A stretch of DNA of 63,938 nt, filler included, from Perkinsus olseni (GCA_013115125.1; 3 parts of 3 records of this genome joined end to end with filler, not necessarily neighbours in it), one strand, 5' to 3'. Counted from the first letter of the whole stretch, positions 11,181-44,236 are shown. The notes: generated by a model not told the origin, from the sequence alone. Numbers and translations: made by a program.

Positions 11181-14100
11181 TCACTCCATCTTAGTGTTAC
11201 GGATATCGTTAATGGGCTCCTCGGACGTCTCGCTGCCAGCAGTCCCACCATCAGCCTTCGCCTTGGTCTCCACACCAGCGCTGCCGCCAGTGGTCGCTGC
11301 CTTAAAACGACTAGCGCCACTAGCTAGTGCGTCCAGTACCTTCACAATGATGATCCACCCGCAACCGCAAGCACCGAGCCATCCTAGCTACCTCCTGGTT
11401 GCCCTCCAGCTTCTCCAACACCTCCGGATAATGCTCCGTCAAGAACGCCTTCATGCGCTCCGTGGCCGTAAGATGCCAATTAGCGACCCGCTTCTGTATA
11501 GCGTTCCACTTCAAACCTCGGTTGATCTGCTGCTCATGCTGTAGTCGAGCATAGGCCCTCGCCACCTTGACCTGCATAAAAGACATCCACGTCCCCTTCC
11601 CACCGACAACACCCGCTCCCACCTGCGTCGTTCCGTCGCCCTCAGCCAACTCAAAGGCGAAGAATTCTCCCCACAAGTCACCGTTGCAGGAGTTGATGCT
11701 GGTAGCATTCTGATACCACTTTCTCGCCTTCGCGATCATACCTGATCAACCGCGCCGTCGAACGCTCGCAGTCAAGACCGAAAGCTATCACCCTTATCCT
11801 TCCAGAAGAACTTCGCCACCGCCATGACCGCATGGACGTCATTCTCGCAGTGCTTCAATGCATCGACAGTCTTGGCGTGACGAGTCTCCTTAGGCTCCAA
11901 TTCCACTGCCTTAGCCCACAGCAACCCTGACCTACGCAGAAAGCACCTCAACTACCGTACGAACAGCAGTGCGGGGAGGCTACCTCGGGCACTGCTGCAG
12001 CGCTCTGTTGAGCATGTGACGGGCTTGAGCACGCGTCTCCTCCAGCTGGATGGACTTCAACCACAACTCATCAAGGTGAGGGTGCTGCTTAGCTGCCGCT
12101 CCCAAAGTTGCCTGGGCGGCCCCCACCGCACCAGCGGCCTCCGTGATGGTCGAATTCCGCAGCCGTCCGCGTTCCAAGATACTGCGAGCCAACGGCAGCT
12201 TGTCCATCTTAGCAGCTACATCGGCCGCCACTATCCACAAGTGGACGCTGCGGGGGCACTTCTCGAGGCCCTCCGACGCCCATCGCTCCGCCTCCTTAAC
12301 ATCACCACTTTCCATGTTAATATGCGCTCCGATCATATACAGCTTAGCAAAGTGTGGATACTGTACGATGGCGTCCTTACATAGGGCCAGGGCCTGAGGA
12401 GAATGGAGACGCTCAATCCCGAGGCACCACCCGCAAGGGACGGTTATGGAACGCCTCAGTCCCCCTTCGACCCACCTGATTGGTATGGTTAGATTCCCGT
12501 TCGAGCTGAATGCTTTGCATCCATATACGTTCGCAAGGTTCCTTCGAGAACTCAGCCTGTCTCCGAGCCGCAGCCAACAGCTGCCGAGCCCTCTGGATTT
12601 CACCGTTACTGACCTACATCAACCCCAGCAAAAATGAAACCCAAAGAACCCAAGACACTACTACCTCAATCTTAGCTGCAGCCAGATGGACATCCTCACT
12701 AGTAGACCCAACAGCCTGCGCTGCCTGCTGCAAGATTGCCCTAGCGCCATCGACATCGCCACGCAGCCACTTCTGTTTGGCGGATATGAGCCACAATTGA
12801 GGAGCCAAGGGGCATGCCTCCACGGCTGCTGCCAACACCTAAAAAAGACAAAACACGTAGCGGAGCGAAGCGAAGCACCTTCTACTGTTTTCTCACTTGG
12901 TCCATCTGGGCCGCAGTACCGTGCCTAGCTTCCAGCTGCGCCCACCGCTTCCACAATCCCTTCTTGTTCGGGAACTTAGCGGTAGCACTGGCATACAGAG
13001 CCCTCGCCGTGTGAGGCCTATGCCGCGACAGCGCTGCATCAGCATCTGCCACCCATTCACGCTTGCAAGCCTGATCAATACCACTCCTTCAACACATCGC
13101 AATACACCCTCACGATTGTTTCAAATGACTTAGCCGATTATTCGACCCAAGATCAAGAAGCCAGACCCGCCTCCACGATTGTGCCTCTCACCGCAAGGAG
13201 GTGAATCACAAGCACGCAATCGTTAAAAAGCTCTAGCGTAGGTTCGAACCCGGGTCCCCTGGGCAGTACCTTCGAGTCCGTCATGTCCATATTGGTGTCA
13301 ATAGTAAGGTCCACCAAAGCATCAGTAGTAGCAGTATACCCTAGATTCTCCGAGTCCTCAGCCATCTGCAGCCACTGCCTTCTGTCAATCTTCACGCCAT
13401 TAGCCCTCAGTGAGTCCATGGCCCTCTGTATGATCTTTCGGATGCCCGAAGTATTCCCACTGCTCTCTTGCAGCCGAGCAGCCGTCACCCAAATTAGCGC
13501 ACTCGTCGGGACGTTCTTACGAGCTTGGTTCAATACCTGTCACAACAACGCCCTAATCCACCACTAGACGACTTGCCCGCCACTACCTTCTGGGCCTCAT
13601 GGTATTCACTCAGCCTCGCCAATGCCAACCACAGCTCCTCGCTCTTCGGGCAACACTCAGTCGCACGGCGTAGAAGAATCTTAGCGTCAGCTGGCTTCTC
13701 CAAAGATACTGCCATCTTCCACAATTGGACGCTCGAAGGAGCTTTTTCCAGGGCCTTACGCAGCACTTGCCTCTTCGCGTCGACAGCGGTCTGTCCATAA
13801 CCACTTGAACACCTACTTAAAAGCCCTTCCCTTCTCACCTCTCGATTGGCCGCATCGATCCAGATCTTGGTGGACCTTGGCAGCTCCCTAACCGCCTTAG
13901 CCAATACAGCCTTGGCGTTCTCGGGCTTCTCCAGCCTCGCAGCCTAACAGTAACGCACGCTGCGCCGCCTAATGGTGCAGTCACTATAGGACTACTTCAA
14001 GCCAGAGGTCCTCACTCTTAGGGCAGTGCTGCACACCCTTCGCCACCAACTCCCTAGCCTGCCCGAGGTTCCCCGTCATCTCCTCCAACCGTGCTGCTGC

Positions 14101-15705
14101 TATCCAGCCTGCTGCGTGATGAGGGTTACTGCGAGTCACTGACTTGAACAGCAACCTGAGGAAGAGAGAGCTCGGATACGGTACCGCTGGAAGGTACCTC
14201 ACTACCTAGCCTTCTTCACCTCATTAACATCAGTATCCACGCCCACTCCCGCTGCTGCTCCTATCCGGGATGCCGCTGCCAGATCAGTCAGATACCCCTT
14301 AGGATCCATCACAGACTGTCCTGTGATGGAATCTTGAAGCTTATCCAACTGCACAGCAAGGACAGCCGCCTTGGCCTGGCCCAACTCATTAACACTGCCG
14401 GCTGCTCCAGAGCCTCCAGTCGCAGGTGTGGCCAGGCCCATCGGCGTAGAGAGACCCATAGGGGTCGCCATACCCATGGGAGTACTGAGGCCTCCAACAC
14501 CCATGGGAGTAGCAAGGCCTCCCATGCCCAGCGGGGTAGACATGCCCATAGGCGTGGACAAGCCCCCACCAAGACCCATAGGGGTGGACAGACCTAGACC
14601 CATAGGGGTCGATAGGCCCATACCGATCGGGGTGGACAGCCCTCCCGTGCCGAAACCTAACCACAGCCGGGCTCCCTTCTCGAAGGCCCTCCCCATCGCT
14701 ATTACCCATAGGCGTAGACATTCCGGTCATAGGGGTCGACATGCCCCCGCTCTGGTCGGTCGTTCCGAAGGTCCCCGCGCTCCGGGCCGACAACAGCAAT
14801 GAGTCCGAAGCCGCCGCCAGCGTTTCTCGACGGCGCTTTTTCGTCTGACATCGCATAGAACTGTCCAACCCCCACCCGCAGCCCATGGTACCTTGAGATG
14901 CTCCTGAGCTTCCGGAATGGCGTCCCACTCTTCCGCAGAAACCTTAGCCAGATCGCGCTTGAAGGGCAAAAGCTGCTGTGAAATAGTCGGACGCTCGTCT
15001 CTCATCTTCAGCAACTCATCGCGCATCCGTTCTTCGCGCCACTGAAATGATACTCATTGATCACCATGAGAAATATCTTAGGTCGAAGGTGGCACGTCGC
15101 AGAACCCAGGATACTACCTTCTTCCGCTTCTCATCGAGCCTCTCGTCCACCTGTTCGTACATCTCATCAGCCTCCTTATCATCCTCGTCATAAACCGTAT
15201 TCTGGAATAGTGAACCGCCGTACCTACACCACCATCCCTCTCAGTCTGACCGCGACGCCACTGGCCCTCGGCAACGTTACCCAGCAAACTCATCGAAGTT
15301 GCTGTCGCCCAGGTCCTGATTCTCTTCGTCTTGTATGGGCGTTATCTCGCTACTACTAGCATCATCTCGACTCACGCCGCCAGTGAACCCAGTGGCTCCT
15401 CGTCCCCGTCCAGGTATGTACCCCGGGGGCGGCGCGCCCCACTTTCCGTGTATAGAGTGCTGCCCAGCCCCAGCGGTCGAATCCCTGGCCAACTTGCTCT
15501 TCTGGAAGGCCCTACTATGCGACCCCAGAGTTCCCGGGGCGATGGGTGGGAACTGAGGCAGCCCTGCGAACTCTGCTCGAGTTGCCACATGGAAGCCGCC
15601 GGCTCCGCGGCCCTTGCCCGCAGTATAGCCCGGAGGGGGTGGATAGCCGGCCGCCCCGGTAAGGCCCTGTCGAGTGGCAGGATTCTGTCCGGGGAGCAAG
15701 GACAT
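11181..15705 (-). CDS. PRP6: Pre-mRNA splicing factor PRP6 (HAT/TPR repeats, multi-exon)
   Basis: [87 protein letters not shown] and many HAT repeats. Stop TGA at 11181. Confidence 0.96.
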
Positions 15706-15945
15706 GTTGGTTAATGTTCAACGGACCAGACTCCACGAATAGATTAATCGGGCGTGCGCGATTGACGATGCTTCTTCCGGAAGTGATCAACGTGGTCACG
15801 GCCCCGACGTTCTCCTGCAGCATGGAGCTGCTCTCTGGTATCACACCAGTCGTGTATGAATTAGTTTCCGCTCCAAAGTCACGTCTGGCAGATATTGTAT
15901 CGCTCTGAGTTGATCCAGCGTAGGTTTTCCTTCATTTCTCCTGTC

Positions 15946-18309: not shown

Positions 18310-18808
18310 CACACTGTATAGTAAACCATTACTGTCAAACGTCCTTGCTATGTAGCGTTCCTAACATCGCTTCACTCCACGTCACCGTTTCTATGCATGA
18401 TAGCCTTGCGTGTAGTTGACCACAGCTTGCACGCCGACACATAGCGGTGTTTTCCGTTTTAATTGAAGTCCTTACCATTGCTGTTGCTGTTTTTCAACAA
18501 CAGGAGCCGTCCGAGAGGGACACAAACTTACCTGGGACTAGGCAACCGCAGATTACCTGTGTGTACTCAGGCTGAGTGAATCGATGCGGCTTTAGTCAAA
18601 TTCCGTATCAGCAAGAGGAGGTTTTTTGACGTCATCTGGCGAGTAGTGGCTTTGATATACACCGCTGTGTTCGATGGTCATTGACGTATACAGGCTCCCT
18701 TAGTGTCGTCGATGATGTAGTTACTGTTAGAAGGCTGGGCCACTAGACCGCCCTTCTTGGAGGACCGCCAATGGAGACCCTTGTCAGTCTGTAGTTTTTT
18801 TTGTTTTG

Positions 18809-20407: not shown

Positions 20408-20414
20408 CCTTAAT

Positions 20415-22071: not shown

Positions 22072-22171
22072 NNNNNNNNNNNNNNNNNNNNNNNNNNNNN
22101 NNNNNNNNNNNNNNNTTAATTAATTAANNNNNNNNNNNNNNNNNNNNNNNNNNNNNNNNNNNNNNNNNNNN
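22072..22171. other. Artificial contig linker (N44-TTAATTAATTAA-N44)
   Basis: Six-frame-stop spacer flanked by Ns, exactly 100 nt. Confidence 0.97.
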
Positions 22172-22244
22172 TTTATCAGTGTTATTATTGGCAGAATCTC
22201 AGGATTCCACTAAACCATTGACTTGAGTTTCCCGATGGTTAACA

Positions 22245-23114
22245 CTTGGTAAGCCGACCTTGACCGCGGTAGAGAACGACGTCCCCCCTAGGCTCACACT
22301 GTCTGACGTCCCACAGATGGAGAACCCCTTGGCTGTCTCCAGTAGCCAGAGAGCATGAGTTGGGAGAGTTACCCAAAGACACGCAGTAAGTTGGATCGTC
22401 GCACTTCGCAGACCCGACTGACACGCCTAATGACCAACACACGAGTAGGTCGGCTGAGGTGAACATACAACTGCTCCTTATGACCACTCACGCATGAGAT
22501 CATCATAAGCCCAAGCGTACTGTTACAGACTGTTACAGGACTACTAGGTAATACTACGTAATAATGTTAGTAATACTAACAGTGAACGGAGAGTACTACT
22601 GTTAGCAGCGCCTAACGACCTGTTAGGACACACCCTGAGTGCCCTCAGAGGGCGGCCGTCGAAGCACCGCCACTTCTACTAACGACCCATTCCGCGGAGA
22701 CGTCGGACGGCCTCTGACCAGTCCTTATGTCCCACAAGCGAAGAGCTCCTCCTTCACAAGCGGTGACCAGCCAGTTACCGCTGCCGTGCCATGCACAGTC
22801 CGTTAGAGGATAAGTGTGCACACCACCGAGGGTCGACACCAGTCTGAGAGGGAAGCATCTTAGGTCCAACGTGCAAGATACAGAAAAGGTGCAGTTAAGG
22901 GCGTTGCTGAGTCCCCTCCCCTCCCACACCACCTTCCTTCGCTCAGGTCCCATATTTTCGCCGAGCTGTCAGCACTGGCCGTCGCTAGCTTGCCATGGCT
23001 GCTGAAGGTCCCTCGGACGACACACGCCTCATGTCCGGTTAGCCGACAGGCAGGTTCCAATCGCATTGGCATGCGAGTGGATGGAAGAAATCCAACGATT
23101 ATACTCCTTTTGGA
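22245..23114 (-). repeat. Inverted segmental duplication copy A, carrying the 5' exons of a WD40 gene (ATG 23072)
   Basis: Near-identical to the reverse complement of 43229-44103. Encodes LTGHEACV...ATASADSSAKIWD, ...ACEGGALRLWD and ...TGDSQGVLHLWD. Confidence 0.92.
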
Positions 23115-23987: not shown

Positions 23988-26900
23988 TCACGTCTTTAGC
24001 GCCAGAAAACCGGCGGCTCCTGCTCGGACCCAGATGTCCTCCTCACGGTCACTTGGTATATCAATATAGAGGACGAAGTTAGTCGAATGCCCGGTCGTCA
24101 ACAGCGTGCCTCGTCGACTGACCACCTTGTAGATTGGACACTGCAGGATGCTCTTCGGCTGCTCTCGATCTACCACCGGTAGAAAGTGTATCGGAGGCAG
24201 CTCACAGAAGAGCTCCTTCGGCAGGGACTCCGCTAGGAGATGGGCTGAACCAAGAGCACTTAAGGAACACTATCCAGGCAGGCCTACTGGTCGAGTCCCA
24301 TCGGCAGCCTTCGAGGAAAATGCCGTACACGTAGACACCCTCAGAAGCTCGTTCCTACACAAGGGGGATAGCTACCTCGGGCGAGCGCGAAATCACTTAC
24401 AGTAATTTGACCGACTTCACGATCGTCCAGGATGGTAAAGTCGAACGCCAGTCTGTCGATCGCCACCTTCTTAGCTCTCGAGAAGTTCTACGAGAAGACG
24501 GACGAGGAGAAGGAGGTGGACCCGGAGAGTCCCCTACCTGCAGCGTTCCGGTGAGAAATGCTTGAGGGAAGAACAACCCGCTGATCCAAAAGGCCGGAGG
24601 CACCCCACTTCGAACCCACTTCTCCATGAAGGCAACGCGATCGATGAGGTCCGATACCCTGAATGGCAACGACGCTGGAGGAAGTCTCTGACGAGCGTCT
24701 GAGGCCCACCAGGAGCTTAGCGGCTTCAACGATAGGAAGCCTCTGTCGGACCATGCCTCAGGCACTTGGTTCGTCAAGAATGCGTTGCCCATCTGACGCG
24801 TATGTCCCACGAGGCTAGCGCACTGCAAAGGATACCTTCTCGAGCGACTCGCTCATCACGACCAGACCCTTCAGAGCCTTTTGAAGCTCCGGAACGGTCG
24901 ATCTGATCTCGTTCAGCAGGCGATTATACCGCAGAACCTGGCGAGGTGAATCCAAGATACGCTGACACCGAGGCTGAGGACCTCCTGTCTGAGGACAGTG
25001 TTCATGCTCTCCTCATAGAGAGGAGGATAGGCCTCCTCTACAGCCAACATGTCGAACAACGGAGGCACCTACATACGGCAGGAATTATACGATACGAAGC
25101 CGTCAAGGCGAGCGAGAGTGTTTCCTGAGAACTAGTGATCCTAAACGGAACTCGGGGTTGGCATCAACATCCCCAAGAACCTCTAAAATCAAAGTATCAG
25201 CGAAAGTAACTCAATAGTCCTTCACGCTGAACCACGATCCTGTCATACAAGCTCAAAAGATACGCCCTCACCTTGCTCAGCACTTCCTCGGCCACCCCAC
25301 TCATCACATCAGCTGTGGACTGCCCGCTGGCGCCACTCCCCGTCTGCGGCGCCATCGACAGGATACCTGAGCGGCAGCTCTTCAGCACGAGGCGAAGAGG
25401 CAAGGCGGCCTACCAGCGAGGAGCTCAGCGGACTCCTGCTTGGCAAAAGCGATACTGCAGTTCTCATGCATACCAAATACCTGCCAGAGTCAGCTCACCC
25501 TCACTCCCATCATGAGCAGTTCGGCACCTCCGGCGAAGGCTCTAGCGGCAAGGACTTGATATAATCCATGAACGCCTCTTGCGTGCTGCCATCTGGACAA
25601 TAATAGAGGCCCGACGCCGAGTACCTGGCCATCCACCACCACTGCCAGCAGCGACACCACCATCACGATGCTCTACTTGTATCCCCCAGAGCCTCGCCTT
25701 TCGACCACACCAGGGCAGATGAAGGTCCGCAAGATGCACTCTATCAAGCGCTTGTCCTTGTCGTCGGTGACACGTCCCCCATAGTTAATCGCCGCGCCTA
25801 GGTAGTTCAGAACTTTATACGGTATTTCATCATAATCATCAATGAACAGCTTCAATTGTCGACGGCAAACCATCAGGTCCTCCATGGTAAATCCGTAGGG
25901 GATGTTCCACCCGATAGGGCCGAATTTACGCCGCTCTTGAACGACCGCGTGGAAGAAGCAAAAGCCGAACAGAAGAGGTTGGAAGACCTCCGGCTTCGAG
26001 CAGTCGTTCAACGTTTTATCATCCAGTCCAGCGTAGCTCCTCAACAGGTTCGCCCGAAGTCCCTTGGGAGGCTCGTTGGTCATCTTCACGCCATTCTGCA
26101 GCAGCAGCGGCGGGAAGGCTTTGCTCGGCATCGACGTCAGCCACAGTCGGAAAGTCGGATTGACGTCCTCTCCACTTAGCTGTTCGCAGATCTGCTCCAA
26201 CTGAGGCATCCAGCTGATGGCCAGGTGACAGTTCTGCAGCAGCACCCAACCTCCTGATTTCGTCGAATGCTCAATCATCCTCGAGGCCTTCGGACCCTGA
26301 CCTTGCCCGAGAGAGATGCTCTCCAACCGATTCGACATGTGTTTCTCCTCAGCAAACGTGAGCATGTCAGCAACCGGGTCGGAGCCCGCAGAGAGGACGA
26401 AGATGAGGGGCGTTAAGCAAGTGGAGTCGCCGTAGGACAGGGCGATGTCGAAGGTGGGCGGCTCGACGAACTTTCTGCCGAGCTTCTCCGTCACGTACTC
26501 AACAACAGCGTTGGTTATCTTGCCAGGTCGGATGGTGCGCAGTATTAGCATCTTCTGGAGGGAATCCAAGGCTTCATCAAGGCCAGCGGGAAGGGGGCAC
26601 TTGTGCGCTTCTGGGTCGTCGTAAATGCACTGAAGAGATTCCATGACAGGAGACATCATGCTGGGCGGCAACTTACTCGGAATCCATCGATATTGGCGGC
26701 AACGGTATCGGCGAGGCCTTTGAAGGCTGGCAGGGTGGACAAGGTGAGAATCTCGTTCCACTCCGTCGGACCGATCCTGAGCATCATCATCATCATCATC
26801 ATCATCGCGGGCTTCTCCAACTTCACCACGTATCAACATAAGATTCCACTCCACGACGACTCACCATTCAGCGGGCGGCTCAGCAGGCCCCTCCGCCTTC

Positions 26901-29471: not shown

Positions 29472-29503
<32 letters not shown>

Positions 29504-32500
29504 GGACACTAGAAAGTTCTCACCTCACACGCAACCGAAGCCTTCTTGATGGCAGCTGGGTCGAAGTCTTCCCTGTTGATGTATGGTTCGATATTGGAGA
29601 TCACCTGCCATCGAATGACCATAATCCTCGACGGAGACCTCCGACCTTGTCCGGGATGTTATCCTTATCGTAAGCGAAGAGTTTCTCCAGCAGGCCTTTC
29701 GGATCGCTCAGCACCTGACGTCAAAGTGCTTTCTTCCTACTCATGGCCAATCGCTTCTTGCGCAGGCGTTTCCAGTCGAATGCCCTTAGCGAGAACATCC
29801 CATTGGGGCATGATATCGTCCGTCTCCCATCCTTGCGTCGAACACGAACACCAGCGAAGCAGCAACACTCCTCCCGGACTCGATCCTTGTTTTCCTTGCG
29901 CTATCTTCGTCAAGGAATCAGACCATGATTACACTATGGGTTTGCTTTGCCGTGCCGTACCACGGAAAATTCACAGAAGAGCTGAAACTGACCTGGCTCT
30001 TGGCGCTCTCCCAATAATCGGCAATCTTCTTGCCAGGCCTCTCTGGATCGTTCTTCATCGTGGGTTTAACCTACACGAAAAATGCAACACCCTAGAATCG
30101 AACCCACGCCCTTTCCATTACGAGCCGCAAATCCTACCTCGAACATAATGCAGATCGCCTCCAAAGTGAGCTTCACTCCGCCTGGGGGATTAGCCAGAGC
30201 CTTGACCTACAGCCACTTCCCCAGTCATAGCACAGGTCGCAATCCACAGCCGAGACGCACCTCCTGGATGTGGCTGAGCTTCAAGCTCTTCAAACACTGC
30301 ACCGCCACCTCTAAGGCGGGTAGGGCCTCGTCAAGGTCCTTCTGAGCATCGTCCTTGATCTCCTGGGCCACTGCTGCCTGTGCTGTGGCCTCCTTCTCCT
30401 GAGCAACAGAAGACCAGATAGCCCACCTAGCCGAGGGTGTACATCAAAAGGACATAAGATCCAATAACAGAGACAGACGGCCACCACGGCAATAGCTTCG
30501 ACAAGCGTCAACCACGAAACCAACAGTTTGTATATAGCAGTGGCACAGTATATTTTATAAAAACAGTGTTGATAAAAACACTGTTTTCAGTCTTTACAGT
30601 ATTTTGGATCATTTTGTGGGTTAAGAAGGAAGCCTTTAAGTCAGAAACCACTTTGCAAGTGCTGATTCGGCAGTGAGAGTCCTCGCTTGCGGCAACTATC
30701 TCTACTAACCTGCTTGGCCACAGCTTCCTTCGTAACAGCAGCCTTGGCCTTGTCCTCAGTGATAACAACCATCATCTCCGCTACCTGACCAAGGAGCGTC
30801 CAGCGTGAGCCTCAGAGACAATGGACGAGACGATGTTAGACTCATCATCGCAAACAGGAATTTCACTGTCGGAAGAGGCTTCGACGCAAAAGCGCTGGTG
30901 AAAATACTGGCTTTCGCGCGGACCCTGCATGCTATCGCTGTATACCGTCAATCGCTTGGAAAAAATGTCTCTGGCTTTCAACACTCATACCACTCCATCG
31001 CGAATACAATGTTCTTTGAAGTACGGTGTTCTCTCACCGTGCACTTCTCTTGAAAACAAACTTTTCCAGTAGAGTTATCTCTCAGCCCTTTAAATTGGAT
31101 CCTCATATCGTTTTAGTGAGCTCAATAAGGAAGCTCCTCACCTCCTTAGAAGTCTTTTCCAGTACAGGCTGCATCGCCACCAACTCCGTCTCCATCACAG
31201 CCACCTGCCGTCACCATCAACTACCGCGTAGAACAGCAGCAGCCGGCCTACCGCTTGGCCAGCCTCGCTCAGCTTGTCAAGTCCACTCTGAAAACGCTGC
31301 CGCAAGGTCTCAACTTCGAGTCTTTTATCACCAAGTATCTGACCGGGACTTGAGCTGAGAAAATATAAGATTGATCAAGAATGCAAGATCGCCTGGTTTA
31401 TAACTCCTTCAGGCAACTCCAGCCGAACTGACCTTCTTAAAATTGGAGATGAGCGTGAGATAGCTGGTCGGAGTGACATAGCAATGGCGCTTGAGCTCAG
31501 CCTTGAACCGAAGGCTGGCCGCCTCTACGCTCTGATGGACCACTCGGAAGGTGACCAACACTCCCTCTGTATTGGGCAGCTTGGTGTCCTGAGGCGGGAT
31601 GATACCACTCCGAAGCACAGAGGAGAGGAAAGCCTGTAAGTAGGCAAGAGGAAAGAGAAATCAACGGCACGAACAGAATGGAAAAATGAAGAGAACCGAA
31701 AATAAAGACGATTGTTTTCGACAAGGGGGAAAAGGGCGAAACCGTAAAGTCAATGGTAACGATACAAGAATCTTCAAACACACAAGAGCTTCAAACGACC
31801 TGTAGCCCGCGGGCCCCCAAGGGTGGATAACCCTGAAGGTTCAAGAACGAGGATGTTACATCAGCGATAAGCTGCTGCTTGGCCACGCTGTAAAGGGCGT
31901 CGGCCGGCCACTCGGCGAACCAGTCAATTGTACAGCAGTTGACAAGGGAAGGGAACATACGCAATCTCGTACGGAAGGCGTCTCCCACTGGAGAAAATGC
32001 CAGGACCTAAGGTAGGGCCCAGGTTCGAATCCCACGCCCTGCATTTTCTTATCACCCACCACATGAATATTCCTCTTGACCCTAGTAAGGTAGGTATTAA
32101 ACAGGTTCGTCTTCGTTGGTTGTAAACCCGCTTGAGTGCAGGCTGCTCGGCAAGTCTGACTGATGGCGTCCATGTCTTCCAATTTGTATCTATCACCAAT
32201 ACGATGATCTTCTTCCTTCTGCTTCGCTCCGCCCCAATGGACAACCATCCAAGCTTTTGACTCGAGGAGTATAAGATGAGCCGAAAGACTCATCCGTCCC
32301 ATATACTCTTCATGAGCTCCTATCACCGCCCTCGCATTATACAGGTACATTTGAGCGCAGTTTTTCATACCACACCAAACGTAACTCGTAAGTATTGGCC
32401 TGACTCCTTCCCACACCTACAGGTTAGGCACATCGCCCGAATTCAGCACGTTGTTGATGGCCTCGACCATCTGCTCATTGACGATTTGGGTGTCGCAGAA

Positions 32501-35500
32501 GAGAAACATTTGCGGTTTGTTATCACAGCCGCTGACCAGCAGACACTTCCGAAGGTCATCCCGGAACTCATTCATGCCGTATCTGCGAAAGAAAATATCT
32601 GCATCGCTCCGCTAAGACAACGTTACCCTTTCGCCACTTCTATCTGGAAACATTCAAAGTCCGAGATGAAGCTAGCCAGCCGAGAAAGGCTTTGGCGGCC
32701 GCTGCCACCCACGCCGAGGAGGAGAGCATTGCCACTGGGCTGGCGAATAACCCTGAAAAATGTCCTTGCCAGGGATCGAACCCGGGCACTGGATCGACCT
32801 GCATATCCTAGCCACATGCTCACAGGCGTTAAAGAACATGACCAGCGGCATCTGATGCGTGCTAGAGTTGTTGTAGTCGTCCAAGTAGGTCTGAGAAGCC
32901 CCAGAATTCACCATCCTGCTGCTGCCCTCTGAGGCCCACCCTACCTCCATCGTTGCCTGTATCTTCGAGAGATCTTCGACCTCGACGTAGTACTTCTCGT
33001 CACCCGTCGATAGGAAGTCCCCAAAGACAAGCGACGGCTTATCATACACCTGATAAAACCAAGCGTAGCTGAACAGCATCAATGACGTCCTCCCCCTACC
33101 TCTTCCTCCGTAGGGCCCTTAAACAGCGGGATACGCTTCCTGCACTGGCTGTTGAACCATGCCCTGTCCTCATCATTGATCAGCCTGTCGCCGTACACTC
33201 TCGTGTTCTCATGGCACCAACAACGAATCACCACCACAACTTCGCTAACATTCTTCGGTGACAAAGAGCAAATACCTGAACAGGGGCATGGCGAGGGTGG
33301 GCATTCCCGGGACAGCACCACCTTGAAAGACCTTCCAGATGTCTCGAAGGTTGAATGTATAATGGCTCTTGGCGGGCGTGGGCAGCAGCTCCCTGTGGAC
33401 CATCTCGAAGATGTCGTAGGCAGCCGACACCAATGGGTCCTTCAGCGCTCTGATAGGCTCCTCGAAGCGGGCCAAGAAGTACTCGACGATCGTCTTGAAG
33501 ATAGTCTCCACCGAGGACCGCTGCATATCAATCGCACAGATCATATTGTGATGTCTCTTCAGCCTCTCAGTTATGAAAGTTCGACCGCCCCCCGGAGGGC
33601 CCATCGCGGTGATGTAAGTGGTATCAATAATCGCCTGGAAGGTGAGCTCCTTACGGTCATACCACCCGCCATGGTCGTGCCACTGCCTCAGCAGCTCTAT
33701 CGGCGGCTGAGCACCATAGTATTCCTTCTGGGGCATGTTCAGGTCGTCCACGAAGATGACCAACTGCTTGCCGGCCGGCGGACCAAACACGCCCCTCCGT
33801 CGCTTCTCCGTTTTCGAATCTATCAAGTCTTGCAGTTGATTCACATGAGTTTGGGCCGAGAAATTGACGAAGACGCTTTGGTATGTCTCAGGAGCTTCCT
33901 TCTGCAACCACTGCGCCGTGTGAATACTCTTGCCCGTGCCGGTGTTGCCGAAGATCAGCACATGGTTGCCAGCGGTGACCAACTTACCCATCACATGAGT
34001 TAGTTGTATGCTGTCGATGGTCGGGACAACTATCGCATCGTAGGCGGCGTTGCGAGGTATCTCGAAGTGAGGGACGGTATCGAGCCACTTGGTCCACTTG
34101 TAGCCGGGGACCTGACTGTCCTCCACCTCGAAGGGAGCACAACACCTAACAAAATGACAGCAACAATACAAGATCCAAAATAGTTCCCACAAGGCCTTCG
34201 AAACCGGCCTTTGAAAAAAAACCATCTGAAGCGAGCGACTCTGAACTCCTCTACAGCCGGAAGAGAAGCTTATCCTCTGCCATATTGTTATTACAGTTAC
34301 ACCTACTAATGGCCCTTCATATAAGATAATATACTATGCTTGAAAAATCGACAGCATCATTGCGGTGAGTGCGAATCCCATAGTAAACCACACGATTATG
34401 ATTGCTAAATAGTATTGTATTGTGAACCTACAAAAATCTTCCTTACATCTCATAGACGCAGCCACTGGTATTCATGCGGAGGAGGGTTCTGTCGAAGCCC
34501 ATATCTTCACCATGTCCGATGAACCAACGGCTGAACTTGGGTCGGCTGTCTGCATCACAGGAAGCCCCGATAGACCACACAGCGCAGAAAAGGAAGATGT
34601 CTTGAAGATAGTCGGAGCCGAGCTTGGATACGTCCGCTGGGGTGACCTTGCGGCCTTCCTTCATCTCGTACTTCTCGAAGAAGCAATCCATGAGACGGAA
34701 GAATGACCGGAGGAGGTTGTTGTCAACTGTACCTGAAGGACCGTTCTAATAGCGTAATGGTAAAGCTACGAACTATCAACGCACCGGTCGTAAGGTCGAC
34801 CCCACCTACTTGCTATTTCTTTGGTATTTCTTCTCACGAAGGTGATAGCCGGCAGACAGAAGTTTCTCGTCCACCTCCGGAGATGCTGTTTAATATCATC
34901 GGTGAAGTTATTAGGCAGCCTCTCGATCCAGCATTCCACCAGAGGCTCCAAGCCCAGCGCCGTCGGCTCCATGAAGACCATACCACACCGACTCACCGTG
35001 GCCGGCGAGGCAACTGCAAGGTCCTCCACTTCGAAGATCATCCGAACCTCCGGGGTGAGAGAGATGATCTCGCCGCTTGTCAGACAGAGCTTCTTATTGT
35101 CATCAAGGACAGTGTTCATCGACTCGATCCACAGGGCATCGACCGGCCCATCAAAGATCACCCACTGGTTGTCCGGACTGCCAGCCTTGTTGTCGTTAAC
35201 CGCTCGACGGAGGAGCTCCGAGGCGATACCGTCGCTCCATTCGTGAGTTACCTCGTCGAAGGCGCCGTACAGCTGCGCTTGCGTGATGGCCTTCGGGTTG
35301 AGGATGTGGGTCTGGACACACTCGTAACCAGCGTCACCGTCCTTCTTCAACTTCGTCATGGTCTGCTGGAGCATTCGGTAGTTGGTCGTTTTACCAGCAC
35401 CCGTTGGCCCGACAAGCATCATACCATGGCGGACCTTCAGAGTGTCCAAAAGTTGCACCACTTTAACCACGAACCATTCGGTGCCTTGTACGTTATTCTT

Positions 35501-38500
35501 CTTGAAGACCTCATCGAGAGCTGCCGACAGGTTGCCGTAGTCCACCTTGGGTCGTTCTGTTGTCGGGAACAGATCAGATATGATATTCTCGAACAGGGGC
35601 AAGTCATCCTGGAGGAACTTCGGCACGTTGACATCCCGCAAGGCTCTCAACACGATCTGGTCCTCGCCGAGCTGGTCACCCAGCGTCCTCTTCAGAAGCC
35701 CACAAGCATCGATCGTCGACTTTACTGCCCTCATACCATAATCGTAGTGGTCTTGTGCAGACAACTGAGAATACGAAGCATCCCAAATTCACCGGTTAAT
35801 TACACTCACCTGTTCACTCGACAGCTTGAAGGTTCCGACCATTTTCCTGGCGTACTCGCGAGCCGCCTCGAAGCCGTAAGCATAGAGCATGATCTCAGCG
35901 ATGAGTGCGTAGTCAGGAACCATCATCGCCATTGGACGGAACAGCGCCTGACTTCGAGCTCCCGCCCAGACCCCACGGTGGCCGCCGACTCACCGCAAGA
36001 TTGTCCGGGAGTTCCGTCCTCCCAGCATATCCGGGATTCATAGTGATGAAAACGTTGAAGGTAGGCTTCATGACGATCATGGAGCCTTCGAATTCTAGCT
36101 CCTTGGTTTCTAGAGTTGTGAGAATATCAGTGGCGAGGGGCAGTGATGAAAACTTACGAGAGTAGCTGGCGAGAGATGCCTTGGCGCCGAATAAGACTAG
36201 TAGTTGTTGGGCAATGACGGACAACACTTCGATGTAGATACGGTTGAACTCATCGAAGCAGCACCTGAAAGGCTAAGTGCTCGAGACAGGAAATCGAGCG
36301 ACATCCGGTTGGTCACACTCGTAACCGTGAGGGGGACTAGCTCAAATGGTAGAGCGCTCGCTTAGCAAGCGAGAGGCACCGGGATCGATGCCCGGGTTCT
36401 CCACTTTTACGACCCTGCCCAAACCCTCAACTTACCATGCTCCTGAGTAGGCCAGTCCCTTGAAGAACTTTCCCACCATCAGGTAGTCCATCTCAGGTGA
36501 GCAGTTGAACACCACACACTGCTTCGCCAACGCCTTTGCCAGATCCTTCGTCGTCTCTGTCTTCCCTGTTCCAGCTGGCCCCGCCGGGGCCCCTCCCAGG
36601 TTCAAACTCTGCGCCCCCATCAACGTCATGTAGCACATGTCAGTGAGAGGTGTGATCACCAACCTCATCGTATTACCAAGATACTCATAACCGTAGGGGA
36701 ACTCCGTTCGGACGCACTTAACCCACATATTCTCCCTGCCCGTGTCATCCTCCTCCCAGTAGTATCTCAGCTGCGAGATCCACTCGAAGGCGCTGCACTC
36801 AGACACCCCTTCAGCGTGAAGCTTCTGAACGACGTCCTTAGCATGGACATCGATAACGATGAGCGCCCCGATAGCTGTCCTCTGAGCCTTCGAAAGCCCC
36901 CTTCTGATGAGTGCAACTAAATCCAGCAGCTGCTTTTGACACTGCGCATGGTACTCCTCGACTCTATTCTCCTGGATAGCATCCTCCACCTCGGCCGTCC
37001 AATGCACTTGGGAGCCATTGAGGACAGCCTGAGCCGCATGGTCCAGCACCCACTGACTCCGAGGACTCTCCTCGTAGCTGATCACCGCCCTAAACAGCAC
37101 CTCCCTCACCGCCTCCCTCATCTCCTTCTCCACGTCCGACATCCACGACTCCACATTAATTCCTCTGGTCAACACCGGCGTCACGTAATCGATAATCTCT
37201 CCCTCGGCTGAGTGCATCTGTGTAATTTCATTGTCGCCCTCGAAAGTGAGCTTGCTCATGGCCTCGAAGACCTTATTCAAGAACGGCTGCACCCTCGTGG
37301 GGTCCTTCGTCTGGGACAGTATCTCCAGCAACTCCTCGTTGGCCAGGAAATAAAATCGCGCGAACAACGCTCGCTTCGACTCCAAGTAGTCCTCCAGGCC
37401 CTTCTGTACAGTCTCGAGAATCACATTTGCCTCTCGGAACTTTTCCAGCAGCCCCTCGCTGGCGCATATCTCCACCACCTTAGAATTCTGGTGAGCATCA
37501 GCCATCGTCTTCCTCCATTTTTGGTCAACATTCCTGAACCTCTTACTCTCACTTGGCAGCTGCTTTACAATATCCTCAGAGTCGAATATCGGTTGCAAAT
37601 ACATCCACGCTCGCTGCAGTTTGAGCCACTCATCCAACGTCTCCGATACCCTCATCAACCTCTCCGCCCAACTGTCAATGTCCTCCTCGAAGACCTTCTT
37701 GTACAACGAGAACTGCATCGCTTGAACTGTGACAATATGCTCATCAAGTAGGTTCAACGCCTCGTCGCTCCCCTTCAGAATGTACGTGCCAGTGTTCCTG
37801 TACTCCTCCTTAACATCAAAGTAAATTCCCTCCCACTCAGCCTTCATCGCCTCCAACTGCTTCTCCAAGGCCCACTCCTTGCCTGCCCTATCACCAACCT
37901 CAGCAATCTCCTCCGAGAACTTGTCAATGCCTCGCTCCAGCAGCGCTTCTAACGTGAACGGTTCCATCTCCGGACCAACTGTGCACCCTATTTTCTCGGA
38001 AATCATTTCCCAGTGCCGATCCCTCATTCCACCGTTTCTGAGTCCCACTACGACCGGCACATAAGGCTTGAAGTCCTCTAACTCCTTCCGAACTTGCTCA
38101 GCTATGCTGCATATACTCTGCAAGCTCGCATCCTCCTTCAGCTTGCGAATGGTTTTGTACATCAGTTTAATACCACCATTCACCTCTCCCTCACAGTGCC
38201 TACAAAGAACGGTGAAGAAGCTACTCTTCTCACTTTGGGAAATGTTATAGATGTTGAATCAAAGTCGTTTGTATAATAAATATGATAATAATCGACGGAG
38301 TAAATATACCCTCAGCTTGAGAGCCGTCCCTCAACAACCATCGGATACTACCGGGCGTCGACGTCTCCGAAAGGTCCCTTCCTCCACACGATTTTGTTCT
38401 TGTGCCAGTTAAATGCGGTTCTCCATAGATTAACATACGGTTCGAAATCCCTGAATCAACCAAAGATACCTCAACGCACCCGCAAGATTCCTACCTGCAA

Positions 38501-41323
38501 ATCTTCCCAATCCTCGAGTAGTCGGTGGTATCTCTATTGAACAGAGCCTCCCTGCTGTTGAACAACCTCGCCTGATCAACCGCGGCCTCGAGCCGTCCTT
38601 GAAGATCCTCCAACAAGCCAGAGACCTTCTCCACGTCGCCCAACTTGTCGTGCATCGAAAACGACGTCACCTCTTCCTCGAGGTTATCAATCAGCCCCTC
38701 AAACGTATCTTGGCTCGACGCTTGCTCCTCACAGAATTTCTCACGATCAGCACTGAGCTTTTCTGATAATTTCATGACGCGTGACACGATCTCCCCTGGC
38801 CGGCCATACGTAATCCAGCGCATATCAAGAGTATCTTTGTCGAGCTCATAAATCGTCCCGAACGTCCCAACAGCCTCATACATCTCCACGCACTCTCCTA
38901 CCTCACCCTCTATCTTCGCAACCTCCGCCGGTAAATGGGTTAAGAATTCCGTCATTTCCGAAACCGTCTCGATATCGGGAATTTCACACGCAAGCTTATC
39001 AAAGATTTCATCGTATTTCGGTTGGATTTCGGCCATCATTTTCTCCTTCAATTTATCCCCCTCAATGCGGAGCACTCCTTCGGCCACTGCAAGGAGCTTC
39101 TCAGCGATGCCCTGCGCGATCTCCCCAAACCCAATTTCGAACATACCAATCCTCACCGAACATGCCGGCAATCTCATCAGTACCTCCTCTCGTCGGCGCA
39201 ATTTCGCCGCGACAATTTTCTTCACTTCGTTCGCTGACACTTGCTCCTCCAAAGTTCTATACTCCTCAAGCTCAGCTTCCACATCGATCGTTAGGACATC
39301 TTCCAGGTCCGTGAACGACCTTAGATACTCGTCCAGCCACTTTTCATGTACCAATATACTCGCCCTGACCCTCGAGCGGCCCTCTTTGACCCACTGATCA
39401 TCATCTCTAAATCCTTTAGACAGCTCACCATCCCGCATCATATTCGGGAAGAGCAACCGTTCAACACTCGACAAGTTGTCCACCGCTACTATGGACTTAT
39501 TATATATCTCTTCCGCGACCTCTGCGAACTCCGCAGGGCTTCTAGTGAATGCAAAACATGGCACGTACTCGATTTCCGGCTTCCTCTCCTCTGCAGGCTT
39601 ACCTTCCTCCTCAGCGGCTGGGGGCGCTTCTTTCACCACTTCCCGTTGGCTCACCACCACTTCCGTCACAAACAAAGCACCGCACTCACCAACCGAATCA
39701 TCTACTGCATACTCTCCTGGCGTCCGCGCTTCGAAGAATGCCGCGAATTTTTCTACCGCCTCAACGTATATTCCCTTCAGTGCTTCCGATAAGAGAAATT
39801 GCACAAGTAGGAGAACCCTCCTCAATGGCGACTGCAGATACCTTATGAAGTTGGTCTCGTTGAAATCATACCGGCTCATCCCGGCTGACATCAAGTCCTT
39901 CACTACGGCCACTTTCACCGCTGGCAGCCACAGGTCCCGAACGTACGCCATCTGTGCTATGTGTAGGTCGTGAATCGAGTTGAACTGTTCTAATGTGAGG
40001 CTTCGAGAGAGCGCTTCCTCGTCCACTAGCAACGGGGACCGGATGCTGGCCAGGTCGTCGCACAATAGAATGGTCGAATGCAATGCTGACACAACCTGAA
40101 TAGTATCAGCAACAATTTCGTGGCGCGTGACGATTTTCATAGTCTCTCACCTCCGCTCGACTTCGGAGTGAAACCCCAGAAAAGGTCAGTACTTGGTGCT
40201 TGACACTCCGGTATTCCCTCCAAGGGACCAATGGGGAGTATCCAACCGAAGGGACGTCCTTTCGTCTCTTCGGTGGCCACGCAATGTCTCGCAAGAGGTC
40301 GACTGTAGCGGCAGTTGTCACCATGCTTCGAGTCAGCATCATCCGCTTCATCTCGTTGGAGTAGTTCTTCTGTACTTCAACGACCATCGCGTCCACGCAA
40401 TCCGCTAATTGGTACGAATAATCGCCAACGCTAGAAGGCAAGCTGAAGGATAGTATCCTTTGCATCCAAGAGAGGTCGTGGTAAACCTGAATGAACCCAT
40501 CTTCGACATATGATACGCGCTGTTCGATGAATACGACTACCGCTTCGGTACAGACAAGAAGACCTCAATGCATGCTGAGCGAGGGAGGTGACAAAGAAAG
40601 GATGCATCATTCTTGTTCGACTAATGGGGGCTGCGCCGGAGTCGCGAGTTCAAATGCGCTTTAGGGAAGTCGGCCATCGGACTTTAGGAATATCACCAAG
40701 GAGCTCGCAAGGGGAATGCTTCCGTAGGAGCGTCTCCAATTGGTTCGATGCCGGGCCCGGGCCTACCTGTGGTGAGGTGCCAGCGAGAGAATCTTCTTCG
40801 ATGAGCAATCGAAGCCTGATCTGTGACTCAGCGTATCTACCGCAGACAGCTAGAGTCAACCTTAGGATACTTCATCCCACATTCACACTTAATCTGTCGC
40901 TACACTCACATTGCCACAACGGCAGCGGGGAGGAAAGCCAACACAGCGCTGTAGCAGCCGGCATCGATCCCTTTGAACCCACCTCCGCCTAGTGACGGCA
41001 GCCTTAAGGCGGTCAGCAAAGAGCGATGGGTTCTCTCCGTGTATACAAAGGAACATCGGCGACAGAGCTTGCTTGCCATCCGAGCTGGTCGCCGAGTCCT
41101 TCCACGATATGTTCGCTTTTCCGGTCGTCTCATCGAACCTGCCATAGCCGAGGCTCCGACGTAACCCAAGCAATTTAGAGACTCTAGCGTCGTAAGGAGG
41201 ATATGCGACGGTTGCAGGAGGATGGGCGTGAGAGAAGTTACTACGCAAAGCCCGTGAGCGCACAACAGGAACTTGTGCGCGATGAAGAGTACAATTACGT
41301 GGCAGCAGTTCGCTGAAGTTCAA
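23988..41323 (-). CDS. DNAH1: Axonemal (inner-arm, DNAH1-like) dynein heavy chain, multi-exon; the 5' end may extend further upstream
   Basis: [10 protein letters not shown]-loops [24 protein letters not shown] and GVGGSGRQS, a stalk, [26 protein letters not shown] and the C-terminus [23 protein letters not shown]...TGA. N-terminal [11 protein letters not shown] resembles the DNAH1 tail. The subfamily call is an inference. Confidence 0.95.
26782..26806. repeat. (CAT)n microsatellite in a dynein intron
   Basis: Eight CAT units just inside the 3' splice site. The poly-D reading in the ORF track is intronic. Confidence 0.9.
29472..29503. repeat. (GAT)n microsatellite in a dynein intron
   Basis: About 10 GAT units. 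Confidence 0.9.
30071..30137 (-). other. 67-nt dynein intron made of a degenerate tRNA (positions ~19-73) plus TTTTT
   Basis: G|GTAGGATT TGCGG CTCGTAA TGGAA AGGGC GTGGG TTCGATT CTAGG GTGTTGC A TTTTT CGTGTAG. The flanking exons join as ICIMFE/VKP. Confidence 0.6.
32007..32059 (-). other. 53-nt dynein intron containing an antisense tRNA 3' end
   Basis: The plus strand reads GGTTCGAATCCCAC GCCCTGC A TTTT. Exons join [16 protein letters not shown]. Confidence 0.7.
32753..32798 (-). other. 46-nt dynein intron made of a tRNA T-arm, acceptor strand and terminator
   Basis: GTCGATCCAGTGC CCGGG TTCGATC CCTGG CAAGGAC A TTTTT CAG. Exons join ARICR/VIRQP. Confidence 0.75.
36331..36403 (+). tRNA. trnA-AGC: tRNA-Ala(AGC), intact, antisense inside dynein intron 36265-36435
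   Basis: GGGGGAC TA GCTC AAATGGTA GAGC G CTCGC TTAGCAA GCGAG AGGCA CCGGG ATCGATG CCCGG GTTCTCC A. Full cloverleaf, G3:U70 Ala identity pair and a downstream TTTT. Confidence 0.96.
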
Positions 41324-41809
41324 TGCCGGAGCTAGCAGGGAGCTAGCAGGGAGCTAGGAGTAGGTACAGCAATGAGTCCCGTAGTGGCTGCGATGACGGC
41401 GGATGTGAGCTCGACTCAGCCTTCCGCTCTCCGGATGTGGAGGTAGGATACGGGAGACTGCTGACTGGACCCGGACCGGGTGTGGAATCCGGCAGTTATC
41501 TCGTGCCCTACTGAACCGTGGTGGCTTCCAACTCCTAGTTGGCAACAGACACGGGTCTGGTTGCTGGCTCTAATAGAGGTCGAACTGTTCACACTCCCAA
41601 CCTCATGGGAATTTCGTAGCCTTGCGCTAGACAGCTGATGGTATCCTAGGTTAGAGCCGGCAAGGGCCATCACCTCAGCTTCCGATTAACACAATCATAC
41701 GAGTGGCACACGGCGTAAGGGCTTACGAGGCTTTGAACCCTCGAAGTCACAGGAGAAAGAGCCAGAATATCGAGAAAGAGGAATTGAGCGAAAAGGAAAT
41801 TATTGGACG

Positions 41810-43123
41810 TTAACTTCCCCCTCGATACGAACGTCGTACGCAGAGCATCCAGGGAATAAGATTCCTAGCTATCCTAGACTCCCAGTCCGCCTGCAACAGA
41901 TGGTTAAGTTTTCCTAACGCGCGATACACGAGAGAAGATGGCCTCTGCATCGCAGGTCCATCATTGAAAGAACAACAACTTCGACCTGTCTTACGAGTAT
42001 ACGTAGCAGTCCCTAAAGACTCCAATCTTCCCCTCCTCCTTGAACAGGTATCTTCCAGCCAAAGGTCGACCTCCCATGGTACGGATGAACTCCTGAGCTC
42101 AGCATATCTTTGCGCACGCGGAAGAATCCACTCACGTTCCACTCATGTGGTGTACGCATCCAAAAGCTGGTATCGTCGAATATCTCTAGCGGTAAACGGG
42201 AGGCCTTCTCGAAGGCAGCATGCTCGAGCCACCGGAGACCGCGATTGGAGAGGCACGACTGAGAAGAGCCACAGCCCCTACAGAACCATCGGCTGAAGCA
42301 TTTTTTGAACGCGATCTCTCACTCTGATATAAACTCTACCACACCTGTTGCCTCATCGATGCCTCATTCGAACAGGGTACGTTACGGACAATTCGGCAAC
42401 GATGGGCAGCGCTTCACCTCAAGAGAGTCGTCCCCGGGACGTCGAGCGCCCGGTCTCCACTTGACAGTTTTCCTTATCTTTTTCGGCCGTTCATCGCCCT
42501 CGAAGTTTGACCGCATAACAACGCTTTTGTATCCTCGAGGTCTCACGAATACACCTAGAAGCTCGACTCATTGCCTTCTTTCGCCGCGGCCGTCGCCCCT
42601 ACCAGATTCTCGCCCACCGGAGAGCGCTTGCATCATCCAACATGAACCGAAGTTTTGCGTGTAGGCCTGCGGAAGGGCTCTGTTTCGGTCAGCTGAGTAT
42701 CGCCATTCGACGCACCTTCAAGTCCGTGAGAGAAGTACCCCGGCGGAGGTAGCGGTTAGTTTCTCGTAGTGAGGAGCTTTTCGATCGACTTAGTGAAGGC
42801 TTGCGCCCTACTAAAGGCGGCAATTTGGGAGATGCTTTATCGGGGTCTCGCCGCTTCATTCTATCAACTGGCAAGTGTAAAATCACACCAGTTTTCCCAT
42901 CCAACGCAATCTGTTCTTTTTCCGTGCGATTATATGCATCTTGCGCACTTGCTATTTCTAGAAGTTCCTCAACGCAACTTGACAGCGTCAGATCGATACT
43001 ATCGCGCATAAGGCATCCCCGATATTGATGCCATATCAGCGTAATTGGAGCTCTTGTCCGGGCATGCCGATGGACGGACTTCCTTACTTGCCAAGTTGAT
43101 GCTCTAACTGACGAATGTGACAC
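41810..43123 (-). CDS. Hypothetical multi-exon coding region (separate gene or extreme 5' exons of the dynein)
   Basis: Natural-looking exon translations (RDSIDLTLSSCVEELLEIASAQDAYNRTEKEQ...; LHAKLRFMLDDASALRWARI) separated by GT-AG segments. Confidence 0.35.
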
Positions 43124-43228
43124 TCTCGAGCATGGAAATGACCTTCTGAAGGGAATGGGTTTTTCCGAGCGGCGGTTGCTGATGATCAGCAGGTATCGAA
43201 TTCCTTCTCCGAGTATTAAGCAACTCCA

Positions 43229-44103
43229 TCCAAAAGGAGTCTAATCGTTGGATTTCTTCCATCCACTCGCATGCCAATGCGATTGGAACCTGCCTGTCGG
43301 CTAACCGGACATGAGGCGTGTGTCGTCCGAGGGACCTTCAGCAGCCATGGCAAGCTAGCGACGGCCAGTGCTGACAGCTCGGCGAAAATATGGGACCTGA
43401 GCGAAGGAAGGTGGTGTGGGGGGGGACTCAGTAGCGCCCTTAACTGCACCTTTTCTGTATCTTGCACGTTGGACCTAAGATGCTTCCCTCTCAGACTGGT
43501 GTCGACCCTCGGTGGTGTGCACACTTATCCTCTAACGGACTGTGCCTGGCACGGCGGCGGTAACTGGCTGGTCACCGCTTGTGAAGGAGGAGCTCTTCGC
43601 TTGTGGGACATAAGGACTGGTCAGAGGCCGTCCAATGTCTCCGCGGAATGGGTCGTTAGTAGAAGTGGTGGTGCTTCGACGGCCGCCCTCTGAGGGCACT
43701 CAGGGTGTGTCCTAACAGGTCGTTAGGTACTGCTGACAGTAGTACTCTCAGTACACTGTTAGTATTACTAACATTATCACCTAGTATCACTTAGTATTAC
43801 CTAGTAGTCCTGTAACAGTCTGTAACAGTACGCTTGGGCTTTTGATTATCTCATGCGTGAGTGGTCATAAAGAGCAGTTGTATGTTCACCTCAGTCGACC
43901 CACTCGTGTGTTGGTCATTAGGCGTGTCAGTCGGGTCTGCGAGGTGCGACGATCCGACTTACTGCGTGTCATTGGGTAACTCTCCCAACTCATGCTCTCT
44001 GGCTACTGGAGACAGCCAAGGGGTCCTCCACCTGTGGGACGTCAGACAGTGTGAGCCCAGGGGGGACGTCGTTCTCTACCGCGGTCGAGGTCGGCTTACC
44101 AAG
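43229..44103 (+). repeat. Inverted segmental duplication copy B, carrying the 5' exons of a WD40 gene (ATG 43271)
   Basis: Reverse-complement match to 22245-23114 with scattered substitutions and small indels, mostly in introns. Confidence 0.92.
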
Positions 44104-44236
44104 ACCGTGCTGGTTCAAATCCCATCGGGTCTATTTTTTCTGGATCATTCTCTTGGACTCAGTCGCCTCGCTCTCTAGTCACTACCCCTCGGACCATAAT
44201 AAACCCCACATTGATGCAGTGGCTTCGCACGCCCCC

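Follow-up and report, generated by a model that had tools for sequence, protein, structure and literature searches.

Five introns of three unrelated genes in a 63,938-nt stretch of Perkinsus olseni DNA (hereafter the window, meaning the whole stretch) carry short sequences that resemble the 3′ ends of transfer RNA (tRNA) genes. The shared core is ~29 nt long and consists of a T arm containing the B box, the 3′ acceptor strand, a discriminator and a run of T residues; the 5′ half of the tRNA is missing. We refer to these sequences as relics A to E. The reading we favour, with about as much confidence as doubt, is that they are dead, 5′-truncated copies of nuclear tRNA genes lying in ordinary GT-AG introns, and that these introns have been shrinking toward a norm of ~50 nt. 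The window is made up of three contigs joined via artificial linkers (N44-TTAATTAATTAA-N44) at 22072-22171 and 44237-44336, so that adjacency across the linkers is meaningless. One of its open reading frames, of 558 residues, shows 97% identity to a protein of P. olseni.

A tRNA-like motif recurs more often than expected

We scanned both strands of the whole window, ignoring introns, with a strict pattern consisting of GGTTCRANNC, 12 nt and TTTT. The scan gave five matches, at (-)32782 (relic A), (-)30104 (relic B), (+)32022 (relic C), (+)44112 (relic D) and (-)13250 (relic E), and these are exactly the sites that had been flagged in an earlier, sequence-only reading of this DNA. The excess also withstood the shuffled controls proposed there: in 1000 dinucleotide-preserving shuffles of the window the mean number of matches was 0.012 and the maximum 1, and the pattern was absent from 247,250 nt of dynein loci taken from other organisms as controls. 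A looser pattern likewise gave five matches, against 0.47 expected, with none of 300 shuffles reaching five; its three matches in the control loci all lacked the GG..C frame. Even on their own, B-box-like decamers exceeded expectation (16 vs. 4.3 expected). TTTT begins at 0.37% of window positions, and its presence at one fixed offset in 5/5 sites is therefore not due to chance. Because the patterns were picked after the earlier finding had been read, the p-values are generous; the excess nevertheless remains large.

The T-loop sequence TTCRANN, G53 and C61 are present in all five relics, and the T arms may resemble those of certain isotypes among the tRNA families amplified in this genus. The T-run, four to six residues long, starts 13 nt past the T loop in four of them, after a discriminator A, and 12 nt past it in relic E, where the acceptor strand leads directly into T5. 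Two features of type 2 RNA polymerase III (Pol III) units, the B box GGTTCRANNC and an oligo-T terminator directly past the 3′ end, are thus found in 5/5 relics, although the T-run is itself built into the search pattern. CCA is absent from all five. A T-run adjoining the discriminator, together with the lack of CCA, points to copies of genes or primary transcripts rather than of mature tRNA, in agreement with the source suggested by the sequence-only reading.

The relics have lost most of the tRNA

ARAGORN identified a single tRNA gene in the window, an intact tRNA-Ala(AGC) at 36331-36404 (+) that is followed after 1 nt by TTTT. Runs with lowered thresholds returned 25 and 135 'genes' with kilobase-long introns, which we discarded as noise. 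The Rfam tRNA model (RF00005) matched the tRNA-Ala at 55 bits and, at 33 bits, a tRNA pseudogene at 4154-4221 (+) that has kept the 5′ two-thirds of the molecule, has lost the T arm and has no T-run. From Pfam matches of the neighbouring open reading frames, this pseudogene probably sits between two TruD-like genes. The window accordingly holds tRNA remnants of both ends, five from the 3′ end and one with the 5′ part.

About 25-29 nt of the tRNA 3′ end survive in the relics, and none of the five still qualifies as a tRNA. The T stem pairs fully in relic A only. A truncated-mode Rfam search of 28 nt was run for relic A, with the relic at the start of the sequence, and matched it to positions 47-71 of the tRNA model at 11.5 bits (E 1.7); with the tRNA-like mascRNA model the score was higher, at 12.5 bits. 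No D arm, and no A box 30-60 nt ahead of the B box, was detected upstream of the relics by either ARAGORN or Rfam. The sequence found there is a splice site, a conserved exon or older intron and, in the case of A, B and E, it is the 5′ splice site and the conserved exon before it. An anticodon-loop-like heptamer can be made out at tRNA spacing upstream of the relic in intron B, by eye only.

Intron C has a 7-nt stretch directly before the T arm (32012-32018) in which every base can pair with the 3′ acceptor strand (7/7), and the fold of 32012-32043 (+) has a z-score of -2.87, with 1/200 shuffles as good. A 'minihelix' of 5′ acceptor strand plus T arm was rejected as a general feature of the relics, since only C was significant: shuffles as good numbered 15/200 for A, 19/200 for D and 36/200 for B, and E folds worse than its own shuffles. 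Pairing of the intron ends was also significant in C only.

Single relics are too short to reach significance under the Rfam tRNA model, the best being the E 1.7 match of relic A, and this would suit a reading in which intron sequence rich in GC resembles the T-loop consensus by chance. Five strict matches in the window, against 0.012 expected, at most one in any of the 1000 shuffles and none in 247 kb of controls, nonetheless refute that reading, within the limits of a post hoc pattern, and we give it next to no credence.

All five relics lie in GT-AG introns confirmed by homology

Three relics and the tRNA-Ala lie in one gene, which encodes an axonemal dynein heavy chain (DNAH1-like; 23994..43200, - strand, 5′ end approximate) and whose best named matches are in other alveolates. 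Its introns were predicted with a custom protein-guided spliced aligner and three guides, intron-less orthologous transcripts of ~13 kb from a metagenome scan. The guides yielded 58, 57 and 56 introns, respectively, 46 of them identical in all three. These agreed introns have a median length of 52.5 nt (range 41-361 nt), and 31 of the 46 are no longer than 70 nt. Three of the 46 contain a relic, each of these being among the 31 short ones, and one contains the intact tRNA gene.

Intron A (32753..32798, - strand) is 46 nt long, in phase 2, and was predicted with an ungapped junction by 3/3 guides; its relic core, at 32757-32785 (-), is in sense orientation, with a discriminator A and T5. Intron B (30071..30137, - strand; 67 nt, phase 0) has an ungapped junction in the spliced alignment and a sense relic core at 30079-30107 (-), also ending in T5. 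Intron C (32007..32059, - strand; 53 nt, phase 0; ungapped junction in the spliced alignment) carries its relic core at 32019-32047 (+), antisense to the host gene. The tRNA-Ala is likewise antisense, in a 171-nt dynein intron (36265..36435, - strand) whose borders again come from a spliced alignment with an ungapped junction. For introns A, B and C the borders given in the sequence-only reading match the spliced alignments to the three guides exactly, and its sixth intron with a complete tRNA-Ala is borne out by ARAGORN, by Rfam and by the intron borders. Intron B starts with sequence similar to the end of the exon upstream of intron A (14/18 nt); we attribute this to chance, the exon peptide being conserved in all four orthologues.

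Relic E, at 13225-13253 (-), lies in sense orientation in a 199-nt, phase 0 intron of a PRP6 gene (13071..13269, - strand), 17 nt past the 5′ splice site; it lacks a discriminator and ends in T5. The exons on either side match consecutive residues (365-451 and 453-505) in a solved structure of human PRP6 (chain 6qx9_5J), which upholds the intron as first proposed. Relic D, at 44109-44139 (+), is a sense relic ending in T6. These coordinates had been given as those of a probable intron; an intron is indeed present, but with other borders, 44109-44139 being the relic and the intron extending over 44051..44162 (+). It is 112 nt long, in phase 1, and was defined by spliced alignment of a WD40-repeat gene to its Perkinsus chesapeaki orthologue (P0125).

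Homology thus places all five relics in GT-AG introns, whose splicing is predicted. The host genes are unrelated to one another, as had been claimed, but they number three rather than two: axonemal dynein (3 relics), PRP6 (1) and, as the third, the WD40 gene (1). Four relics are in sense orientation to the host gene and one, C, is antisense. The 29-nt core amounts to 63% of the intron in A, 55% in C, 43% in B, 26% in D and 15% in E.

Some dynein introns contain other repeated sequence. A motif of 12-19 nt (GCGGAGCGA...) is common to introns 32190-32420, 32583-32626 and 28366-28550 and may be another short intron-borne element. Microsatellites of the (CAT)n/(GAT)n type are found in opposite orientation in the introns at 29441-29523 and 26777-26864, and again in the third contig, at 48655-48705.

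The terminator as pyrimidine tract

The sequence-only reading had gone further and proposed a general system in which the Pol III terminator serves as the pyrimidine tract of the intron. In two sense cases this description holds: in A and B the relic makes up most of the intron, and the T-run ends 3 and 7 nt, respectively, before the 3′ AG, so that the terminator may act as the tract in these two introns. As a general system the proposal is not borne out: it fits 2/5 relics only. The T-run ends 23 nt from the 3′ AG in D and 154 nt from it in E, while C carries it on the opposite strand; in D and E, moreover, the relic is a minor part of introns of 112 and 199 nt. In the 46 dynein introns, a T4 or longer run was found within the 20 nt before the last 3 nt in only five, A and B among them, and the mean pyrimidine content of this stretch is 57%. 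A T-run near the 3′ end is missing from the other 41, so these introns do not in general depend on such a tract.

The relics do not form a visible sequence family

Similarity among the five relics is confined to about 15-23 nt around the T loop, whether the relics are compared with their flanks, 47 introns are compared all against all, or blastn is run against the window. The earlier observation that the relics differ in sequence therefore stands, outside the T arm, in the alignments both of the five relics and of the 47 introns, and the window shows no sign of an introner-like family. Inspection of the five borders by eye revealed neither terminal repeats nor a consistent target-site duplication; only the splice consensus AG|G repeats there. 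The layout of a tRNA-derived short interspersed element (SINE), in which a body and a tail accompany a tRNA-like 5′ head that bears both an A and a B box, was not found either; only the tRNA 3′ end is there. A covariance model (R1) trained on the five relics and the tRNA-Ala scored these sequences at 28.8-33.3 bits, while the next best match in the window reached 14.5 bits, compared to 13.4 bits for the best match in the 247 kb of controls, indicating that the window contains no further copies and no graded tail.

These data bear on another idea, in which the relics are not independent tRNA gene fragments but old copies of a short dispersed repeat (SINE-like or of some other type) that has a tRNA-like 3′ end and a Pol III terminator. 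C and E have an identical non-pairing T-stem combination, and B and C match at 15/16 nt across the 5′ T stem, which hints at common sources; five copies in 64 kb is also the density of an abundant repeat. Yet the likeness among the five is limited to about 20 nt in the T arm, there is neither an A box nor a SINE body, and no other part of the window scores above background with R1. We consider such a repeat improbable.

A few other sequences of this general type were noted. B-box-like decamers that have no T-run at tRNA spacing occur at 40742 (+), 10125 (-), 5839 (+), 8933 (+) and 41739 (-), and may be older relics or chance matches. Two of the three guides place the first of these at the 5′ end of an intron in the poorly conserved tail of the dynein; those at 10125 and 5839 were reported by R1 with background-level scores. 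Both copies of a 127-nt inverted repeat (87% identity; 54318-54444 vs. 55551-55676) have TTCGAAT followed by a T-run and fit our loosest pattern, but they are not tRNA-like.

A probable rearrangement junction at the 5′ edge of relic D

Near both ends of the middle contig lies an inverted repeat of 880 nt with 95% identity (43229-44103 vs. 22245-23114). The first copy is part of the + strand WD40 gene that hosts relic D and the other is a partial second copy of this gene, perhaps a paralogue or the second haplotype of a polyploid genome; the alignment of this second copy to the orthologue goes no further than the exon preceding the relic intron. The two are homologous across the exons and over the first 52 nt of the relic intron, with homology ending at 44103, 5 nt before the core of relic D (44109). 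Past this point the second copy is unrelated or nearly so, and only 73 nt of its contig remain. Any residual likeness of relic D to this sequence was not significant, 30/1000 shuffles reaching the score of the downstream stretch and 276/2000 that of the intron part. Since its first 52 nt are shared with a relic-free paralogue, the D intron is older than the relic or independent of it.

The segmental duplication breakpoint directly before relic D would fit a reading in which the B box and terminator are under selection, as working sites bound by TFIIIC (similar to extra TFIIIC, or ETC, sites) or as small nested Pol III units. TFIIIC-bound sites are fragile in yeast. The B-box consensus is moreover intact in 5/5 relics, with a T stem that is fully paired in A alone. 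An intact B box is, however, imposed by the search pattern, no A box is found upstream, and the relic has not been kept in the paralogous WD40 copy. Selection of this kind seems to us very improbable.

Intron turnover and the case for intron gain

Exon flanks of the 46 agreed dynein introns frequently conform to AG|intron|GT, with NAG before the intron in 24/46 and GT after it in 24/46, and many borders could for this reason slide by up to 4 nt. At the positions of introns A, B and C and of the tRNA-Ala intron, no intron was present in four relatives, L013, L014, L015 and L026, each covering some or all of these positions. The same was true of L025, which covers only the tRNA-Ala position of the four; a further relative, L018, was left aside because of its poor score. 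As the relatives are either intron-poor or distant, the lack of introns in them does not date the introns here. L025, a 2469-nt genomic contig with about 75% protein identity to the dynein, is the closest genomic relative; in the 640-residue overlap none of the four introns of the P. olseni gene shares its position with any of the three introns of L025. Together with the AG|..|GT flanks, this makes intron turnover in the lineage plausible.

Such turnover might include intron gain, through insertion of a 5′-truncated tRNA gene copy or of the cDNA of a tRNA precursor, with the terminator at its end, into an exon at AG|G(T), followed by splicing of the insert. Introns A and C, and perhaps B, are the ones concerned. 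Without the relic core, A and C would be left with 17 and 24 nt, respectively, less than any working dynein intron (minimum 41 nt), and in A and B the T-run lies directly before the 3′ AG. The exon flanks would fit insertion at proto-splice sites and the absence of positions shared with L025 is also consistent with gain. On the other hand, the AG|GT flanks are common to all the introns and not specific to those with relics, the five borders show (by eye) no consistent target-site duplication, and likeness limited to the T arm gives no sequence family. Relics D and E, furthermore, are small parts of introns of 112 and 199 nt, and the beginning of the D intron is common to the relic-free paralogue. 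On balance, we think gain of this sort rather unlikely.

Origin of the relics

We return to the reading proposed at the outset, in which the relics are dead tRNA gene copies. The Perkinsus tRNA gene population would be unusually large and would turn over fast; in a gene-dense genome, new tRNA copies would survive mainly in introns, the tRNA-Ala in its 171-nt dynein intron being a putative living example. Copies truncated at or after insertion, or otherwise dead, would erode while the introns shrank by deletion toward the ~50-nt norm, leaving the relic as most of the shortest ones. The T-run would then be a leftover that came by chance to occupy the place of a pyrimidine tract in the two sense cases, and would answer no requirement. 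Intron lengths are graded, with 46, 53, 67, 112 and 199 nt for the relic introns and 171 nt for the tRNA intron, compared to the dynein median of 52.5 nt. The tRNA-Ala intron, the pseudogene at 4154 and this spread of lengths fit a history of birth, death and deletional shrinkage.

Several observations weigh against this reading. The relics went unreported by the Rfam tRNA model at E <= 10, in searches of the window and of 3.1 kb, 241 nt and 141 nt. All five keep the same end and none has a 5′ half, which random erosion does not predict; this bias is partly one of ascertainment, since the search pattern demands a B box and a T-run. The sequence outside the relic core comes, splice sites included, to the 17 nt of A and 24 nt of C mentioned above, the smallest intron being 41 nt; either A and C were born with the relic or nearly all of an older intron was deleted around it. 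Lastly, the 5′ edge of relic D is sharp. It resembles a rearrangement junction rather than slow decay, suggesting that relic D did not arise by erosion of a full tRNA gene at this position.

The same-end bias, the short remainders of A and C and the sharp edge of D keep alive the idea of capture at breaks, by which introns would be created or renewed. More broadly, 5′-truncated copies or primary transcripts of amplified tRNA genes could be a regular raw material of Perkinsus introns, caught at breaks in genes, spliced early or replacing older sequence, and forming a sizeable share of the very short introns. We rate this wider proposal as doubtful. If true, it would amount to a tRNA-derived counterpart of introners without a transposase-bearing family, with 3/46 introns of one gene still recognisable.

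Other features of the window

A long poly-C tract (44337-44480) opens the third contig and C5 closes the middle one, so that the two may be neighbours separated at a C homopolymer. The third contig also contains a direct repeat of ~900 nt with 74% identity (47729-48616 vs. 49376-50299).

Comparison with known systems

The origin of new intron sequence is an old open question, the known sources being transposon-like introners, tandem duplications and the filler DNA left where breaks are repaired. Our data hint at tRNA gene copies as a recurrent source of intron sequence in Perkinsus, a parasite of oysters and clams. A genome in which the tails of tRNA genes form most of some minimal introns would add a new source to this list, one that can be dated and counted with ease because the isotype names the parent. 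Should the relics prove to be ordinary dead copies instead, they would show how far tRNA gene birth and death reach into the intron content of a compact protist genome. Perkinsus, where near-identical tRNA genes number in the hundreds and several species have been sequenced, would allow a direct test of the question. For annotators, the message is that B-box/T-run relics in introns are not genes.

Scattered partial tRNA copies are familiar from animals as truncated tRNA retropseudogenes and tRNA-derived SINEs, 5′ truncation being typical of reverse-transcribed copies. SINEs keep a tRNA-like 5′ head with A and B boxes, whereas the relics described here keep only the 3′ end of the tRNA and the terminator of the gene. 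We found no description of tRNA-relic introns in the literature searched (supplements excluded).

Introners resemble our introns in being short inserts that form whole introns, and they are known in dinoflagellates, which are also alveolates (PMC9860276; bioRxiv 10.1101/2020.10.14.339549). They differ in making up near-identical families, often with terminal repeats and target duplications, whereas the relics share the T arm only; neither 'tRNA' nor 'SINE' occurs in the main text of these two papers. Introns of Perkinsus are of the GT/AG type and 39-1622 nt long, mostly <100 nt (Zhang et al., PMC3101222).

Amplification of tRNA genes has been described in the same genus and explains the abundance of tRNA-derived sequence: P. 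marinus has >500 copies of five tRNA types, with 349 tRNA-Leu-CTT, 116 tRNA-Gly-GGA, 46 and 9 tRNA-Ile and 23 tRNA-Tyr genes >95% identical to the consensus (Kojima and Jurka 2013, PMC3706591). Dada transposons of P. marinus target tRNA genes and insert at the A box (PMC3706591). These elements of 4.7-11 kb split the tRNA gene there, with the target-site duplication TAGCTC, whereas the relics begin at or near the T arm and have no transposon beside them. On introns of host genes the consulted sections of that paper are silent.

Closest to the intact tRNA-Ala in its dynein intron are the nested tRNA genes of other organisms. In Caenorhabditis, tRNA genes nested in introns die fast (Wang and Ruvinsky, PMC3342880), and Arabidopsis has nested tRNAs as well as a tRNA-like sequence in the GUT15 intron (PMC6152437). 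Our relics are as one would expect of dead nested copies of this kind. They stand apart from nested tRNAs in being sharply truncated at the 5′ end, in having kept the terminator, and in making up 43-63% of three introns of 46-67 nt.

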